DNA of 64,000 nucleotides from a virus, in IMG/VR virus record IMGVR_UViG_3300005573_000052. One strand, 5' to 3'. Shown here piece after piece: positions 8,111 through 53,429 of this stretch (within the stretch, counting starts at the first letter, position 1; every line of letters starts with the position of its first letter). Under the pieces are notes generated by a model that was not told where the DNA came from, made no database searches, and saw only the letters and a program-made list of their open reading frames with translations. The position numbers and the translations under genes were made by a program.

Positions 8111-8428
8111 TTAATTCGGTCTCGCCCCTTTTAACTCTCTCAACCGCCTGAGACTGCCGGTGCGGGTCACAACCCCGTCTACCACGGCATCAAACTGGTC
8201 AATCCGTCCATGGACAGATCGGCGCAGAGACCAGTGGGTTTCGCCCCGGTCGGCCGAGTAAGTCACGCCTTCACGGACAATTTGCCCACGGGCATCATCA
8301 AGAGCCCGGCGGCGCAATGTGTCGGCATCGGCCCCGTAAGTAGCCACCCGTTTGGCGAACTTGGCGGCGTTCCAATGGCGGGAAACCTTGGAACGCAATG
8401 ACTTAGGGATGTGATTAGGAAGGCTCAT
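8111..8428 (-). CDS. basic hypothetical protein
   Basis: 105-aa ORF; the mini-ORF MTTSTS (8425..8445) overlaps its ATG. Confidence 0.6.
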   Translation of the reverse strand: MSLPNHIPKSLRSKVSRHWNAAKFAKRVATYGADADTLRRRALDDARGQIVREGVTYSADRGETHWSLRRSVHGRIDQFDAVVDGVVTRTGSLRRLRELKGARPN

Positions 8429-8454
8429 GAGGTGCTAGTCGTCATATTCCTTTG

Positions 8455-8688
8455 TTAGCCACTGACTGCCGTGGGCTCTGAAAGAAGTCCTGCGGCATAG
8501 AAGTTGTTGGGGTGTCCCGACACCGTTGCGGCGGTTTCGAGTTTGAATGGCAGTCCGTGCGCGAGCGTAATTATTGTGCCCGGCTGGAGCGTGCATCGCG
8601 CCTCGTGGCTAACAATGGCATCACAGCGCAACGAGGCCGTCCGTCCTGCCGTCGTGCGCTTTTTCGTTTTCGATTGCTTGGTTTTCAT
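8455..8688 (-). CDS. cassette 1 hypothetical protein (77 aa)
   Basis: ATG in the attC loop; stop TAA inside core site GGCTAAC. Confidence 0.6.
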   Translation of the reverse strand: MKTKQSKTKKRTTAGRTASLRCDAIVSHEARCTLQPGTIITLAHGLPFKLETAATVSGHPNNFYAAGLLSEPTAVSG

Positions 8689-8739
8689 GGAGAAAGTTTG
8701 TCCGCGTTCTGGCCTCGTGGCTGACTGCCGAGGTTCGGC
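8607..8739 (+). repeat. attC-like site B
   Basis: GGCTAAC-10-CAGC(G)CA(A)CGAGGCC ... GGCCTCGTGGCTG-9-GTTCGGC. Confidence 0.8.
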
Positions 8740-8960
8740 TTAATCGGGTAGAAGGCAGTCAGGTTCCGCGCCACGGCCCGCCCGAAGTCGTCATTCCGTA
8801 GTTGTCGAAGGGTTTTGGCTCGCAGGTCTCTTTCCGCCGAGCGCGGGAAAAAGTAGAGCCAGCGCCATGCGCGACGAACCGCCGAACCCGCCGCCACTGC
8901 CAATGCAGCAGCGCGACCAACGAGCCTGCGGCGTCCAACGGATTTAGTCAGGGGTGGCAT
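8685..8960 (-). CDS. cassette 2 Arg-rich hypothetical protein (91 aa)
   Basis: ATG at 8960 in the attC C stem; stop overlaps the next ATG (ATGA). Confidence 0.5.
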   Translation of the reverse strand: MPPLTKSVGRRRLVGRAAALAVAAGSAVRRAWRWLYFFPRSAERDLRAKTLRQLRNDDFGRAVARNLTAFYPIKPNLGSQPRGQNADKLSP

Positions 8961-8980
8961 GGCAGGTCTATTTGTTAGCC
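8881..8980 (+). repeat. attC-like site C
   Basis: GCCGAAC-9-CTGCCA(A)TGC ... GCATGGCAG-8-GTTAGCC. Confidence 0.75.
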
Positions 8981-9360
8981 GCCTGAACAGACGCGCCGAC
9001 TTCCAGCGCCTTTCTGGCGATGTCGCCGAAGTCTCGTTGGCTGCTTGCGTCGCCATATTCGGAAAGCTCCGCGATGTCGTCCAGCGCAGCGCGATACTCT
9101 CCAATTGCCGTCACGAGACAGCCGAAGTTTTTCTCGGCCAGTTTTTCCGCCAAGAAGCGGTGCGCGATATTTTCAAGCACGGTGGCGGCTCTGTGCAGTG
9201 TGAGCGTTACAGGGTGGCCTTTCGGCTGAAATTCTTCTCGCGCCCATTCGCGCAGATTTTCTGCGACGTAAGAAGCCTCGGCTAACAAAGCGTCACAGCC
9301 AACGCCCTTGCTTAGGGCTTCGACTTCCGCTGATAGTGTTCCTGTGTTTTGATTGCTCAT
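8968..9360 (-). CDS. cassette 3 hypothetical protein (130 aa)
   Basis: ATG in the attC D loop; N-terminal VGCDALLA is encoded by the attC arm. Confidence 0.65.
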   Translation of the reverse strand: MSNQNTGTLSAEVEALSKGVGCDALLAEASYVAENLREWAREEFQPKGHPVTLTLHRAATVLENIAHRFLAEKLAEKNFGCLVTAIGEYRAALDDIAELSEYGDASSQRDFGDIARKALEVGASVQAANK

Positions 9361-9408
9361 AGAGATTGTCCTTTTCCTGTCGGGCGTGGCTGATCGCTGG
9401 CGTTCGGC
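9280..9408 (+). repeat. attC-like site D
   Basis: GGCTAAC-9-CAGCCA(A)CGCCC ... GGGCGTGGCTG-9-GTTCGGC. Confidence 0.8.
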
Positions 9409-9626
9409 CTGAAGAAAAGCCCTTGAGGGCCGCAGTAATCGCCTCGCGCTTGGTGGATGAGCAGTCCGTAGCCGGCGGCGAAATCAACCTCGCCATCCTC
9501 AAAGCTACGCATCTCGCGCATACATTTTCCCTTGAGGTAATGGGTGCAGTCAACGCACAGCCGAACCAACTCTCCACTGCCAACGCGATTGCGCGGCTTT
9601 TTTGGTTTAGTAGGTGACTTATTCAT
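9357..9626 (-). CDS. cassette 4 Cys-rich hypothetical protein (89 aa)
   Basis: CVDCTHY...C...CG; ATG in attC E; ends NASDQPR...SL inside attC D. Confidence 0.65.
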   Translation of the reverse strand: MNKSPTKPKKPRNRVGSGELVRLCVDCTHYLKGKCMREMRSFEDGEVDFAAGYGLLIHQARGDYCGPQGLFFRPNASDQPRPTGKGQSL

Positions 9627-9652
9627 CGCGTGGCAGATTTCGGACGTTCGAC
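9560..9652 (+). repeat. attC-like site E
   Basis: GCCGAAC-10-CTGCCA(A)CGCGAT ... ATCGCGTGGCAG-9-GTTCGAC. Confidence 0.8.
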
Positions 9653-9777
9653 AAAGAAGGCTCCAGTTCTTGGAGCGCTTGCTCTGGAGTTGGAGTAAAA
9701 CGGTCCAAGCCCATTGGCTCAGCAGAGACCATGGGTGAAACCGTAAAGCCCAAGGGGGTTGAGAGGGAGTCTTTCAT
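9619..9777 (-). CDS. leader ORF (52 aa) reading into the cassette array
   Basis: ATG 9 nt after promoter 9787-9816; stop just past the cassette 4 ATG. Confidence 0.5.
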   Translation of the reverse strand: MKDSLSTPLGFTVSPMVSAEPMGLDRFTPTPEQALQELEPSLSNVRNLPRDE

Positions 9778-13522: not shown

Positions 13523-14541
13523 GACTCAAATGCGGGACAGTAGTCGCGATGATCAGCAAAGGCCAGTTTGCCATCTTTGGTCCGCCAAGTGGATGCAACT
13601 GCCTGCCACGCCGTGCTAACGCCGCCATAAGCCTTGGGGTCAACGCGGATGAAGTAGTCCTTGAAGGACCCGTCTGGCTCGGGTGTGCTATTGACCACCT
13701 TGACCACCACGAGGTCCTCGTCGCCGGGCAGAGACTTGCGGTATAGAGTGCCCCAGTCGTCGCTTTGCACGGGCTTGAGCCCGGATTTCATGATATACCG
13801 CTCCTGTCCATACGACTCAAGCATGACGCGGCGAACCTCGGCATTGGATTGAGCGTCAATGTCACGCCAGTCGAACTGCTTGAACACGATGTCTTCGGTG
13901 ACTTGGACGCCCTTGAGGAAGTAGTATTGGGCGGGGCTATCGGGCCATGACACGGCGGGGCCAGTTTCGCAGTGCAGGCGGTTGTCCTTGATGGATAGAG
14001 AGGGAGATGCGCAGCAGACCACCTCGCGCCCGGTCACCCAATAGAGCCAGAGCCCTGCATCTCGGGCCTTGAGAAAAGGCAACCAGATACCTGCATACTT
14101 AATTGCCTCGGGTTTGGATGAACAATTAAACCATGCTGCGGACCGTGCTGCGGACCGTGCTGCGGACCATGCTGCGGACCATGCTGCGGACTCTGCTGCG
14201 GACTCTGCTGCGGACCGTGCTGCGGACTCTGCTGCGGACCATGCTGCGGACCGTGCTGCGGACTCTGCTGCGGACCATGCTGCGGACTCTGCTGCGGACC
14301 GTGCTGCGGACCGTGCTGCGGACCATGCTGCGGACCGTGCTAACTTAGTGGCATAGGCGTATCCAGCTTGGGCGTCTTCTACCCATTTGATGGGCAACGG
14401 GTCCATCCCTAGCGCCGCGAAATGCTCGGCGAAACACTGCTCAATGACAGCCTTGTCGCAACGGTGCTCGTGTTTAGGGATGCGAGCGAGCGCGTCGATG
14501 ATCTCTTGGGTCTTGGTGGTGAAAATGGGTTTGGTTGACAT
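13519..14541 (-). CDS. DUF6745-like protein with SAAx tetrapeptide repeat
   Basis: RLHCETGPAVSWPD, YFLKGVQV, NAEVRRVMLE.YG, VKVVNSTPEPDG..KDY.I.V. Confidence 0.75.
   Translation of the reverse strand: MSTKPIFTTKTQEIIDALARIPKHEHRCDKAVIEQCFAEHFAALGMDPLPIKWVEDAQAGYAYATKLARSAAWSAARSAARSAAESAAWSAAESAARSAAWSAAESAARSAAESAAESAAWSAAWSAARSAARSAAWFNCSSKPEAIKYAGIWLPFLKARDAGLWLYWVTGREVVCCASPSLSIKDNRLHCETGPAVSWPDSPAQYYFLKGVQVTEDIVFKQFDWRDIDAQSNAEVRRVMLESYGQERYIMKSGLKPVQSDDWGTLYRKSLPGDEDLVVVKVVNSTPEPDGSFKDYFIRVDPKAYGGVSTAWQAVASTWRTKDGKLAFADHRDYCPAFES
14131..14340 (-). repeat. 12-bp tandem repeat, 17 full units plus a partial, TCCGCAGCA(TGG/CGG/GAG)
   Basis: 9 invariant bases plus one variable codon (W, R or E). 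Confidence 0.95.
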
Positions 14542-29238: not shown

Positions 29239-30063
29239 TTAAATGGAGGAATCTGAAGGGTGGGGTATTGGTCTGGACCTAAGACGAAAACGTCGATTGG
29301 CAACGCTTGATTCTGAACGCCCGAGAAGGGTCGCCGCCTTAGCCACACTATGTGAGCGCACTATCTGGTCTTCGTCGGTCGTCCACGCCTTGGAGGAGAC
29401 CACCACTCGCATTGTGGCGGGTCGAGTCCATGCCATTATTTCCGTAGCCTTCTTGCGTTTGCGCTCAAGAGCCAAACATCCCTCCGAGTAGAGGACATTC
29501 GCGACCTTGACCGCGTCCTCGCAGAAAACAACGATGTTGTAGGCTCGGTCTCGGACGTTACGATTCAGGACTTTGGTCTTCCCTGTCAAACCGTGGAGAA
29601 AGCGTTCGTAAGCCACCGCCATGTCTTCGCTTGTTGTCACCAAGGATAGGTAAGGGATTCCGACAGCGGTAAAACCGAGAGACCCATCTGCGTCAAAAAA
29701 CCCCCTCCAATAATCGGGGGCAGAAAAGGGAACCGTAGGTGGACTAACTGTCAAAGATTTCTTGCCAGCGGGCACTCCAAGTGCTTCGATCTGTTCTCGA
29801 AAGCCCTGACGACACATGCGCCACGTTATGCTGTCGTAAGCCTCGGAAAAATTGGTCGAACGATGACGATAGGTGAGACTACCTTCGGGGAACATCGCAT
29901 GGAATCGGTGAAGGATATCCTCATCTCGAACGTTAAGCTCGATTTCTAGCTTGCCCTTGTTAGGATTGTCCTTCTGCCGGTAGAGGTGTCCGTCTCCTTG
30001 GATGAAGCCGAAAAAATAAGCGTGAGCGGGATTGGTGAGGTCAATGACGTGAGGTGTCTCCAT
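29239..30063 (-). CDS. double-motif LAGLIDADG homing endonuclease, free-standing downstream of rtcB
   Basis: AYFFGFIQGDGHL and YWRGFFDADGSL; AT-richer. Confidence 0.85.
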   Translation of the reverse strand: METPHVIDLTNPAHAYFFGFIQGDGHLYRQKDNPNKGKLEIELNVRDEDILHRFHAMFPEGSLTYRHRSTNFSEAYDSITWRMCRQGFREQIEALGVPAGKKSLTVSPPTVPFSAPDYWRGFFDADGSLGFTAVGIPYLSLVTTSEDMAVAYERFLHGLTGKTKVLNRNVRDRAYNIVVFCEDAVKVANVLYSEGCLALERKRKKATEIMAWTRPATMRVVVSSKAWTTDEDQIVRSHSVAKAATLLGRSESSVANRRFRLRSRPIPHPSDSSI

Positions 30064-35069: not shown

Positions 35070-36391
35070 AACCCCTTAAACTCCCGGTCCTTATAAGCGG
35101 ACCCACGAGATACAATCCCGATGGGCACACCAAGTTGAGCGGAGATATAAGATGGAACCCATTCCGCCGCAACCATCTCACACCGTCTATTTACGTTGTC
35201 CCTTACCTCACCTAACGCCGCCGTCAGCCGTTCGCGCTTGCTGAAATCACCCGGGTCAACACGACAAGAAAGCAAGTCTGCCCCGGGGTAATCCACGATC
35301 ATCGGCCACGTCGAACGCTTGCTCAACTGGTCCAAATGGGTAAGAGCCAACTGGTGAATGGGTTGACCTACTGCCACCGCATATTTGGCCAACACCGTAT
35401 CAAACCAACCCGCGCGGAATCCATGCTGCCATTCGTTGGTTCCGTTATGGGGTTCGGAGACAAGGGACTTGACAACGGGGTCTTCGCCGGGAAAGGGTCC
35501 GGCCCCATGGCGATGCCCGTAAACCCGCAAAACGCCCACGTTCGTTACATCCGTAACCCCAGCCTGAACTAACATCTCGCCCGCGTTACGATGGGTCACG
35601 CGCGACCAAGTGGTGTGAGGATGAAAGCCATAATCCTCGTCCAGCAACACCCCTTGAGACCCTTCCCAGACAGTGTCTTGGGTTGACACCATATCCATCA
35701 TCTCGTCTTCGCCCACAAGACGAACCTGCTTGGTGAAATTGCCATAACGGAAGACCAAGGTGTCGAGAAGCAGGTCATCAGCGAACAGGTTCATGTCGTC
35801 TTGGGCACCCCTCGCGCCCGCATCCTTGACCCGATCCCAAGCAATTCGAGCCTGAGGAAGCAAATGCTTGCGAAGACGATCCAACCTGTAACCGGTAGAA
35901 TGGCCGTTTTCAAGGTCACCGATGGTTAAGATGTCTTGTCCACCTGCCTCTCTCCGCTCCAACGCATATCTGACCGTCTCCCCTATCCCGACTCCACAAG
36001 ACCCATGCCGGTCCAACCCTCGCGCTCGCTCCTTGAGCCGATTAAGGGCGGCATGATATGGGGTCGTGACCAGAGCATCCTTGTGAATGGTGATGATGGG
36101 AAGGTGACCGATCACCTTGGGAACGAGAACCTCTTGCTCGCGCATTAGACGCAGAGGGTCAACCAAAACGTGCTGAGTCAACAGAGTTGCTGCTCCGGCC
36201 AAAGACCCACTTCCCCATTGGGCGAAGGTGTGATGGATACCGGCATCGGTTATGACGTTGTGGGCGCACTGGCACCCACCAGAAAATCGAACGACCAGCT
36301 TGATTCCGTGATGGCGCACCAAAGCGTCCACCGTAGCGCCCTTGGCCTCGTCACCAAAGTGTAGTCCTGTGACAGTGAAAGCCTTGGGCAT
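35066..36391 (-). CDS. adenylosuccinate-synthetase-like ligase (divergent PurA; not PurZ)
   Basis: FGDEAKG, GG.Q.AHNV, GSCGVGIG, EGSQG.LLD...GFHP.TT.S, R.G.GPFP.E, R.GWFD, THLD. Confidence 0.85.
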   Translation of the reverse strand: MPKAFTVTGLHFGDEAKGATVDALVRHHGIKLVVRFSGGCQCAHNVITDAGIHHTFAQWGSGSLAGAATLLTQHVLVDPLRLMREQEVLVPKVIGHLPIITIHKDALVTTPYHAALNRLKERARGLDRHGSCGVGIGETVRYALERREAGGQDILTIGDLENGHSTGYRLDRLRKHLLPQARIAWDRVKDAGARGAQDDMNLFADDLLLDTLVFRYGNFTKQVRLVGEDEMMDMVSTQDTVWEGSQGVLLDEDYGFHPHTTWSRVTHRNAGEMLVQAGVTDVTNVGVLRVYGHRHGAGPFPGEDPVVKSLVSEPHNGTNEWQHGFRAGWFDTVLAKYAVAVGQPIHQLALTHLDQLSKRSTWPMIVDYPGADLLSCRVDPGDFSKRERLTAALGEVRDNVNRRCEMVAAEWVPSYISAQLGVPIGIVSRGSAYKDREFKGL

Positions 36392-36437
36392 GGGTTGGAA
36401 TCAAGCTGGTCGGTTAGGACAGGAACTGCAACTTGGC

Positions 36438-51519: not shown

Positions 51520-52325
51520 GAGAGAACGGCAGAAGGTGTTTGGGCGGCAGTTCGGACCAGCTCCTGATACGCCGCGAACGAGAACAGCGGTGAGGACAGG
51601 TGGGGGACCTCGGGCTTGTCGAATGAGGACTTTTCGGCGAGGCACCGCAGAACCATCAGAGCCTTGAAATCGCCCGGTTCCGCATACCTGACACTCTTGA
51701 CCGGCCAGACCTCCGCCAATCCACCACTGTCCTTGACGTAGCCCTGCACGGCGGCGCGAATGAGGGGCGAGAATGGCAGTCCACCCCCATCCACCTCGTC
51801 ACACACCCAGTGCTTGATGCCGGATGGCAACTGGGGAACCACCCGGTTGAAAGTCAGGGTGTTGACGGCGAGGAACGAGGAGAAGAACGGGAGGGCTAGG
51901 ACGAGGTTATCAGTCCACAACTCCCTCACCATCGCCCAGTCCGCGCGGGCGCGCCCATCATAGTGGCCAATGGTGGCTGCACGGGACCACAGGCGCAACA
52001 AGTCGTGATAGCCTTGGGTGTTGCGACAGAACACGCTGATTGCACTCTCGGTCTTGGCGCTGGCCGGGTCCTTCTGGGCGGCGTCGGCACACACGGTCAG
52101 GCGCAAGCCGTAGATGAGCTGGACCTTGGCGGCTTTGGCGGACTTGTAGGCTTGCAAAAAACCATCAATCTTTCTGTCCTCTAGCACGACTTGGGTCAAG
52201 TTGCCTCGTTTAGTCAAGTCAAAGACAGATAACGCCCCACCGGGTTTGCTTTTCTCTGGCTCATCAAGAGTGAGTAATGAGTGTCCACCAATAGAGTAAG
52301 TAGAGGTAAAAACTGGAGTAATCAT
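51516..52325 (-). CDS. stand-alone PHP domain of the split DnaE
   Basis: P.F.S.YSIG..LL.L, K.I.GL.., F..N..GY.DL.RL.S, V.Y; the metal-binding HxH is absent. Confidence 0.8.
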   Translation of the reverse strand: MITPVFTSTYSIGGHSLLTLDEPEKSKPGGALSVFDLTKRGNLTQVVLEDRKIDGFLQAYKSAKAAKVQLIYGLRLTVCADAAQKDPASAKTESAISVFCRNTQGYHDLLRLWSRAATIGHYDGRARADWAMVRELWTDNLVLALPFFSSFLAVNTLTFNRVVPQLPSGIKHWVCDEVDGGGLPFSPLIRAAVQGYVKDSGGLAEVWPVKSVRYAEPGDFKALMVLRCLAEKSSFDKPEVPHLSSPLFSFAAYQELVRTAAQTPSAVLS

Positions 52326-53278
52326 AATTTGAGCTTCCATCCGTTAATGGTTCCGCCTGCCAACATAAATTGAAAATAGGTTCCCTGTTGCTTGCACCAT
52401 GCATTAAGATTTGTAATCACGACCTCGTTACCATTTGGGTCAATCATCACCCAATCTTTAACACTGCGCGAGCGATAATGAGAAACGTCCTTTCCGGGTA
52501 TTCTCCACCCTTGAGAAGTTTTGGTTATCCCGGCTAACAGATGATATATCGGCCCAGCTTTCAACCCGTGCTCCTTGCAAAAGGCCCGCAAACCGACTCC
52601 GCGATAGACGGTGCCATCTGGAGACTGCAAACAAAACTCCCTCTTGACGTTATCTTTTCGGTCAGGATGAGTCTTCCACCCTTCATATTCAATCGCTCGA
52701 CCAATAGCTACAGCGTGCAATCGCCCATAGTTTAATCCCATTTCGTGACAAAACGCCTTTAGGTTGACTATCTCCCTTTTGCTCCCGAGGGGGTCGTAAA
52801 GAACATAAGCCTTTGGGCCGCTAAACCCGTTTTGTATGGCTTTCTCTCTTGCTTTCTTTGCTTTCTCACGGTTGTTGGGGTCTGAGAAGTATTTTTTAAG
52901 CCATTCTGATTGGGCTTGTGTCTGTTTTTTTGTTCGTTTCGCTCCAAGCGTCCCTTTTGTTGGCTTCGGAGCGAGATTAAAGCCATATCGGCGGATTGCG
53001 CTTCGATAAGATTTAATCCAATGCTCCTCCCGTTCTAGCAGGTAAGACTCCCCCAATGAAGGGTCTATGTCTTCCACGATTTCGATAGACATTCCTTGGT
53101 CTCCGTATTTATCAAACGCTCGTTGAAGGTAAGAATTATCATGCTTCCCGGCTTCTAATTGGCCAAGATGATGTGTGGCTCGTAAGGGCCAGCGCGCGGT
53201 TGAACCCACGTAAACCTTGGGTGAAGCCATAAAACGGATAACGTAAATGCAAGACGAAAAGGAAGATTGAGAACGCAT
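52322..53278 (-). CDS. GIY-YIG homing endonuclease with C-terminal repeats
   Basis: CIYVI......YVGS....R...H..L..GKH.N..LQ.AF.KYG...E..E.WI...FN; AT-rich. Confidence 0.85.
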   Translation of the reverse strand: MRSQSSFSSCIYVIRFMASPKVYVGSTARWPLRATHHLGQLEAGKHDNSYLQRAFDKYGDQGMSIEIVEDIDPSLGESYLLEREEHWIKSYRSAIRRYGFNLAPKPTKGTLGAKRTKKQTQAQSEWLKKYFSDPNNREKAKKAREKAIQNGFSGPKAYVLYDPLGSKREIVNLKAFCHEMGLNYGRLHAVAIGRAIEYEGWKTHPDRKDNVKREFCLQSPDGTVYRGVGLRAFCKEHGLKAGPIYHLLAGITKTSQGWRIPGKDVSHYRSRSVKDWVMIDPNGNEVVITNLNAWCKQQGTYFQFMLAGGTINGWKLKL

Positions 53279-53334
53279 ACCCTCCAATACACCTAGAGAG
53301 TAGAGGATTTGATACAATCCTACAAAAATCTTCA

Positions 53335-53429
53335 CCCGCCTTTTCCTTGCCGGGCTCGTCAAGGTTGAGCAGAGACGCGCCTCCGATGCTGTAGGTGCTG
53401 GTGAAGACGGGGGTGACGGAGGATGTCAT
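53335..53429 (-). pseudogene. orphaned original 5' end of the PHP gene
   Basis: MTSSVTPVFTSTYSIGGASLLNLDEPGKEK, GC3-rich, versus the AT-rich MITPVFTSTYSIGGHSLLTLDEPEKSK at 52325. Confidence 0.8.

Follow-up and report, generated by a model that had tools for sequence, protein, structure and literature searches.

Do the small genes at one locus of a viral genome form an integron-type cassette array, and how is such an array organised when its genes lie on the attC strand that is folded and cut? The question arises from a stretch of 64,000 nucleotides (IMG/VR record IMGVR_UViG_3300005573_000052), the whole of which we refer to as the window. From 9777 down to 8455, five small minus-strand ORFs (52, 89, 130, 91, and 77 aa) follow one another and lead into a conserved gene for a protein of 105 aa. 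An initial annotation had read this region as an inverted cassette design, in which each gene starts in its own attC hairpin and ends in that of its neighbour. The coordinates that it gave for the array features all hold.

Layout of the array

The region 8454-9652 is composed of four attC-type hairpin sites (j1 to j4) and a lone terminal core box, giving four cassettes that encode the last four of the five ORFs (Table 1). The AAC triplets of j1 to j4 are located at 9648-9646, 9404-9402, 8976-8974, and 8735-8733. We consider it highly probable that this region is a real integron-type cassette array without an integrase of its own (CALIN), carried by a jumbo-phage-like genome in reverse polarity. 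The conserved flank that adjoins the array may serve as a secondary or attI-like site of insertion.

Table 1 Features of the cassette array and its borders, as positions in the window
Feature	Position	Strand	Remarks
52-aa ORF, upstream flank	9619..9777	-	crosses the first crossover point and ends inside j1
attC-type site j1	9560..9652	-	R' GTCGAAC, R'' GTTCGGC; bulged T at position 24; ATG 9626 at the edge of the 5' stem
Cassette with 89-aa ORF (9626-9357)	9403..9646	-	last 15 codons and stop inside the next cassette
attC-type site j2	9280..9408	-	R' GCCGAAC, R'' GTTAGCC; bulged T at position 23; ATG 9360 in the 74-nt loop
Cassette with 130-aa ORF (9360-8968)	8975..9402	-	under purifying selection in the minus-strand frame
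attC-type site j3	8881..8980	-	R' GGCTAAC, R'' GTTCGGC; bulged T at position 23; ATG 8960 in the 5' stem
Cassette with 91-aa ORF (8960-8685)	8734..8974	-	last 16 codons and stop inside the next cassette
attC-type site j4	8607..8739	-	R' GCCGAAC, R'' GTTAGCC; extra C in the 6-bp stem; ATG 8688 in the loop
Cassette with 77-aa ORF (8688-8455)	8455..8733	-	TAA stop within the terminal core box
Lone terminal core box GGCTAA|C	8454..8460	-	without hairpin; array end; the conserved flank begins at the C of the box
Conserved flank AAAGGAATATGACGACTAGC...	8425..8453	-	adjoins the array; common to about 15 related contigs
Conserved 105-aa gene	8111..8428	-	downstream of the array; directly before the large terminase gene in relatives

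Directly before the first core box, a terminator-like hairpin (9660-9676) is followed by a T-rich run. The reconstructed empty site, CTTTGTCGAACAAAG, is itself palindromic. A feature of this kind was remarked on beside the array of phage TJE1 by Qi et al. (PMC9892861).

Genome context and related arrays

The genes of the window lie nearly all on the minus strand and include those for DNA polymerase III alpha, an NAMPT-like protein, RtcB, a CCA-adding enzyme, a PurA-like protein, lysozyme, and homing endonucleases. Proteins with a LAGLIDADG-like domain (29239-30063) and a GIY-YIG domain (52322-53362) are probably such endonucleases, and the GIY-YIG gene adjoins PHP and polymerase III genes. A metagenome contig of 151 kb matches the window, and the 105-aa protein is encoded unchanged by a 181-kb contig; the source genome looks like that of a jumbo phage. 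Two further repeats were observed elsewhere in the window. At the junction of the PurA-like gene and the next gene (36290-36413), a perfect 16-bp inverted repeat (CGACCAGCTTGATTCC / GGAATCAAGCTGGTCG) has its arms about 90 nt apart. A 12-nt tandem repeat in the DUF6745 gene (14185-14290) differs in copy number and a few bases from two other assemblies of the same phage.

About 15 contigs carry the flank AACAARGnnRATAYGMCGACTWGC together with the 105-aa gene, each with differing cassettes. Among the cassettes are a methyltransferase-like gene with an NPPY motif (L016) and one for a DUF551 protein, and related cassettes occupy different array positions (L010 vs L019). The 105-aa protein has no family match and no match to solved structures, and prophage copies of its family were absent from bacterial species genomes. 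In smaller related phages (L008/L009), its gene and the start of the large terminase gene overlap, an arrangement expected of a small terminase gene. The cassette proteins of the window have no match in Pfam or PHROGs, the 89-aa protein has no relatives besides itself, and the window DNA has no match in the phage collection. The ferritin-like neighbour has no viral relatives and its exact protein is not on record; an exact 40-mer used as neighbouring-gene bait is absent from viral contigs.

About 4-5 kb past the window, the same genome contains at least one more pair of sites that agree with the array in family and polarity (L013:2869-2973 and L013:3166-3284, some 4.9-5.3 kb from the window's end). 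The two sites lie between two paralogous genes, and the boxes of one close on those of the other (TCCTAAC...GTTCGGC and GCCGAAC...GTTAGGA). The AAC is in frame at both sites, with an ATGA overlap at the second.

attC geometry of the sites

On the minus strand, the 5' half of each junction consists of an nnnnAAC box, 8-9 nt, a 6-bp stem (CTGCCA or CAGCCA), a variable inner stem, and a loop of 35-74 nt. The 3' half continues with the inner stem, one bulged T, the 6-bp stem, 9-10 nt, and a GTTnnnn box. The inner stems (CGCGAT/ATCGCG, CGCCC/GGGCG, TGC/GCA, and CGAGGCC/GGCCTCG) are wholly different in sequence and always keep their pairing, i.e., they covary. In the j3 stem, CTGCCATGC/GCAT[T]GGCAG, the conserved part has a compensatory C>T/G>A change as well.

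In the folded bottom strand of an attC site, the AAC is part of R' and the extrahelical bases are on the opposite arm (Nivina et al. 2016; PMC5027507). A conserved T occupies position 23 or 24, and a 6-bp stem separates the first and the last extrahelical base (PMC5027507). Counted from the 3' end, the bulged T that follows the 6-bp stem falls on these positions in j1 to j3 (Table 1), and the stem of j4 is longer by one base. As a control, the same detector was applied to the class 1 integron of plasmid R100, where it returned the aadA1 attC with the layout 7 + 9 + 6 + T and the T at position 23.

The sites were identified with detectors built for this analysis, which require AAC and GTT as box ends. 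AAC and GTT end all four window sites and 26 of 26 non-redundant sites, a count that is not an independent test because the detector demands both. The variable bases of the core boxes (GCCGAAC, GGCTAAC, GTCGAAC) fit RYYYAAC/GTTRRRY only loosely, and GCCGAAC has a purine at position 4. The sizes of j1 to j4 (93, 129, 100, and 133 nt) are within the 57-141 bp taken as the attC criterion; some sites of relatives measure 185-205 nt.

When both strands of the 64 kb were searched (128 kb in total), the family pattern matched j1, j2, and j4 only. A generic structural scan of the window returned j1 and j2 only, and a relaxed detector (bulge, score ≥ 9.5) j1 to j3 only. The hairpin free energies of j1 to j4 were no better than those of shuffles on either strand, with unremarkable z-scores, and folding energy was therefore left out of the evidence. 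A MAFFT alignment was rejected as the base for a covariance model, as it misaligned the sites because their loops vary.

A stronger inverted repeat, CCAACGAG...CTCGTTGG (8915-9042; 17 nt, 88% complementary), extends across j3. It was rejected as the true j3 site: it has no bulge geometry, it breaks the chain of complementary boxes, and the homology to L001 runs through its AAC.

Reversed polarity

In the R100 integron, the strand with the bulge opposite the AAC is antisense to aadA1, and the site is 3' of the gene. Phage TJE1, a published CALIN with a site at the end of a methylase gene, has this strand antisense to the gene too. In the window and at 26 sites from 12 related contigs, by contrast, the bulge-opposite-AAC (bottom) strand is the coding strand, and the detector scans found no bulged sites in antisense orientation. 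The inverted design, with the genes on the attC bottom strand, is thus borne out. The canonical cassette has a promoterless top-strand ORF followed by its attC; here, the ORFs are on the bottom strand and the attC precedes and overlaps the ORF. The cassette genes are read toward the conserved flank, not away from it.

Judged from its substitution pattern, the 130-aa gene appears to be truly coding on the minus strand. Compared in the minus-strand frame with the 85%-identical homologue in L001, it has 41 synonymous and 15 non-synonymous codon changes, and third positions hold 44 of the 60 differences. One L005 cassette has, on the same strand, a gene for a phage PAPS reductase (phrog_424, E 6e-31). 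Codon statistics on the short ORFs did not distinguish the strands.

Starts, stops, and reading frames

Every cassette start codon had been assigned to the loop, or the edge of the loop, of its own attC. All four cassette genes of the window do start in or at their own attC, but the loop is not always the place: two start codons fall within the loop, and the other two within the 5' stem or at its edge (Table 1). Of the starts at the non-redundant sites of relatives (n = 26), 14 fall within the loop, 5 within the 5' stem, and 2 within the 5' spacer; 3 come after R''. Loop sequence is rich in A and poor in T (A 31% and T 13%, compared with 20% and 22% in the genome). As proposed, one arm, the 3' arm, encodes the N-termini. 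They share no peptide, however, since the 3' arms are read in different frames (GTT GGC vs TTG GCA, GTT AGC vs TTA GCC); hence, the conservation is at the DNA level.

In agreement with the initial annotation, the upstream ORF runs in frame through the core AAC, as Asn, at four of the five junctions in the window, and the fifth reads GGC TAA. The tail peptides read from the array ORFs are NVRNLPRDE, NASDQPRPTGKGQSL, and NLGSQPRGQNADKLSP. In the relatives, the AAC frame is the long open upstream frame at about 18 of 23 judgeable sites. The first stop in this frame lies between -14 and +37 nt from the next start (22 cleanly measured sites), with a distance within 15 nt in 18 of the 22. The claim that an upstream gene ends in the attC of its neighbour, near the next start, is upheld for many of the genes.

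The ATGA overlaps reported for the array (9357-9360 and 8685-8688) are real, and such overlaps occur at 8 of the 26 non-redundant sites. They had been taken as part of the special design, as had the missing Shine-Dalgarno sites, and neither turned out to be particular to the array. ATGA overlaps are found in 18 of 77 gene pairs genome-wide and are as common outside the array. A Shine-Dalgarno-like 4-mer precedes 22 of the 78 genes in the whole window (28%, against a background of 19%), and one of the four cassette genes, that for 130 aa, has such a motif (AAGGA). Because rare Shine-Dalgarno motifs and ATGA overlaps are phage-wide, the cassettes follow the ordinary gene-junction style of the phage and put nothing special in its place. 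The low use of these motifs hints at a host that employs them little. Promoter and terminator scans gave results at chance level.

Crossover and cassette exchange

At all four links in the window, the R'' box of a site complements the R' box of the next exactly (GTTCGGC/GCCGAAC or GTTAGCC/GGCTAAC), and the boxes inside one site match each other less well than those of neighbouring sites. Walking this chain from the conserved flank, we rebuilt arrays of one to five cassettes in 12 contigs. Of their links, 27 of 28 are exact, and these use at least eight different 7-mers. Exact complementarity is the pattern that cassette circles cut at AA|C would leave.

Direct and decisive evidence of exchange comes from L022 and L023, which share 98% identity across 1 kb of adjoining DNA; L022 carries a further 784 bp, which is exactly two cassettes. 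This insertion is bordered by AAC triplets and begins with an attC 5' arm. One gene has two tails in this pair, ending in ...HNKADMPTCSK in L023 and in ...HNVEISHDRNVKSSTKNHHA in L022, where its neighbour is different; the tail of the gene is thus supplied by the neighbour. Between the window and L004, whose 105-aa protein is 87% identical, homology begins at the terminal AAC, and the box of L004 at this position is GTCGAAC, the same as in j1. With L001, the window shares homology in the 130-aa gene alone, and this homology breaks off 2 nt away from the AAC of j3. L001 has kept the 3' arm within the coding sequence and has no 5' arm, from which it follows that cassette genes also occur outside arrays.

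No variants of the window's own array were found; the sole other copy (L003) is identical, so that the array is the same in two independent assemblies. From the comparison of relatives, we infer that crossover in this array takes place at AA|C as well.

Integrase and array class

No tyrosine recombinase or Phage_integrase domain was detected among the scanned ORFs of the window or in the domain lists, whose coverage takes in parts of the window and some 8 kb past its end. Neither integrases nor serine recombinases nor Y1 transposases turned up in four related viral records, of which two are ≥ 90% complete. A complete integron has intI beside attI and a Pc directed into the cassettes, an arrangement that was not seen here. 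The locus has four sites within 1.1 kb and no integrase among the scanned ORFs of the 64-kb window, and the array is therefore assigned to the CALIN type, which is defined by at least two attC sites and the absence of a nearby integron integrase. We infer that the sites are cut by an IntI-type tyrosine recombinase acting in trans.

A model for reverse-polarity cassettes

Taken along the mRNA strand, a cassette runs from the C of the core AAC through its own attC hairpin and the gene body to nnnnAA. The hairpin holds the translation start and the first ~15-25 codons. As the coding strand is the folded and cut attC bottom strand, the crossover AA|C is inside or just past the gene end, and many genes therefore borrow their last codons and stop from the next attC, which in one conserved frame has a stop close to, or at, the codon where its own gene begins. 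The promoterless cassettes would be transcribed by read-through from upstream in the phage and not from an integron Pc, and their translation would be coupled. Cutting in trans would be done by the IntI-type recombinase of the host or of another element.

A wider reading is a serious possibility that we put forward tentatively. Phages may keep their own class of integron cassettes, selected for reverse polarity, in which the attC bottom strand is the mRNA strand and a single element acts as the site of recombination, the untranslated leader, the start region, and a stop module shared between genes. Any cassette order would then form a readable operon under phage transcription, and transcription could favour folding of the sites on the non-template strand. 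Such cassettes would be traded among phages via integrases met in infected cells. The interpretation of the initial annotation is partly supported by these results.

Alternative explanations

The sites might instead be cut by another, unrecognised recombinase that is phage-encoded or phage-specific, and their likeness to attC would then be convergent or distant. The near-complete related phages lack tyrosine recombinases, serine recombinases, and Y1 transposases, as this explanation would have it, and a conserved protein of unmatched fold, that of 105 aa, is encoded beside every array found. However, the 105-aa gene served as the bait for those arrays, and its constant presence is hence an ascertainment effect. 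The other array of the same genome has different neighbours, and in relatives, the 105-aa gene directly precedes the large terminase gene, like that of a small terminase. In addition, the geometry of the sites is the same as in attC sites that IntI1 is known to use. We therefore regard a recombinase of this kind as unlikely.

Another view would be that the hairpins act mainly as RNA, in translation coupling or processing around the starts, and that the mosaicism results from ordinary homologous recombination between repeats. A similar role has been described for the promoter-stem-loop repeats of T4-type phages. The position of the sites on the mRNA-sense strand, the start codons in A-rich loops, the stops adjoining the starts, and the lack of a detected recombinase all suit a function in RNA. 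Yet homologous exchange would neither preserve the exact 7-mer complementarity of neighbouring boxes (27/28) nor set the ends of indels on the AAC triplet, and the geometry to which integrases bind in attC is just this one, a 6-bp stem followed by a bulged T at position 23 or 24. A role as RNA is compatible with recombination and does not replace it. As a full explanation, it is very unlikely.

That the pattern reflects palindromes arisen by chance in GC-rich DNA, or faulty assembly, is next to impossible. One could cite for it the other inverted repeats of similar energy in the window and the unremarkable folding z-scores, but it is refuted by the pattern scan (no family pattern elsewhere in the 128 kb searched), the covarying site architecture that recurs in a dozen other contigs, the L022/L023 indel, and the box chain, as well as by the identical array in two independent assemblies.

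Comparison with known systems

An integron-type array, presumably cut in trans, remains the preferred reading, and its relation to described systems is as follows.

Toxin-antitoxin cassettes: In sedentary chromosomal integrons, these cassettes do without Pc, and some are placed on the opposite strand of the array (Sci Adv 2024, PMC13108822), which is comparable to the present genes. They differ in having their own promoter and in occurring singly among canonical cassettes (PMC13108822). Here, whole arrays are reversed, promoterless, and chained by overlapping stops and starts.

Phage CALINs: Phage CALINs with working attC sites have been published (Qi, Rajabal et al. 2023, Front Microbiol; PMC9892861), and the arrays of TJE1 and PH101 were called typical of bacterial arrays (PMC9892861). 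In common with these (PMC9892861), the present arrays are integrase-less attC arrays in virulent or uncharacterised phages and have small genes and DNA methyltransferases as cassettes, here the NPPY gene of L016. In TJE1, the one site recovered by our detector is 3' of its gene with the bottom strand antisense, whereas every site found here is reversed, stands before its gene, and overlaps the start of that gene.

R100 aadA1 cassette: The 59-base element of this cassette has the identical hairpin architecture, the AA|C crossover, and complementary neighbouring boxes. The R100 gene occupies the top strand and is followed by its attC, with intI1, attI1, and Pc beside the array. In contrast, the phage genes are on the bottom strand, the attC precedes and overlaps them with coding loops of 35-135 nt, and no integrase was found.

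PeSL repeats: The promoter-early stem-loop (PeSL) repeats are stem-loops that border small accessory genes in the variable regions of T4-type phages and support modular gene exchange. This exchange goes through homology between the repeats, whereas in the arrays described here, a fixed triplet marks the point of exchange and the site geometry is that of integrons.

The supposition that the layout had not been described before is in line with full-text literature searches, which returned no description of reversed, start-in-site cassettes.

Biological meaning

Selection of the bottom strand is held to orient cassette genes correctly for the Pc promoter. If phage arrays are oppositely polarised, the same recombination chemistry would support a second cassette architecture, one fitted to phage read-through transcription. 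The C-terminus of a protein could then change with the neighbour of its gene. Accessory genes of phages, such as those for methyltransferases and PAPS reductases, may in that case spread as cassettes moved site-specifically, and illegitimate recombination would not be their only route.
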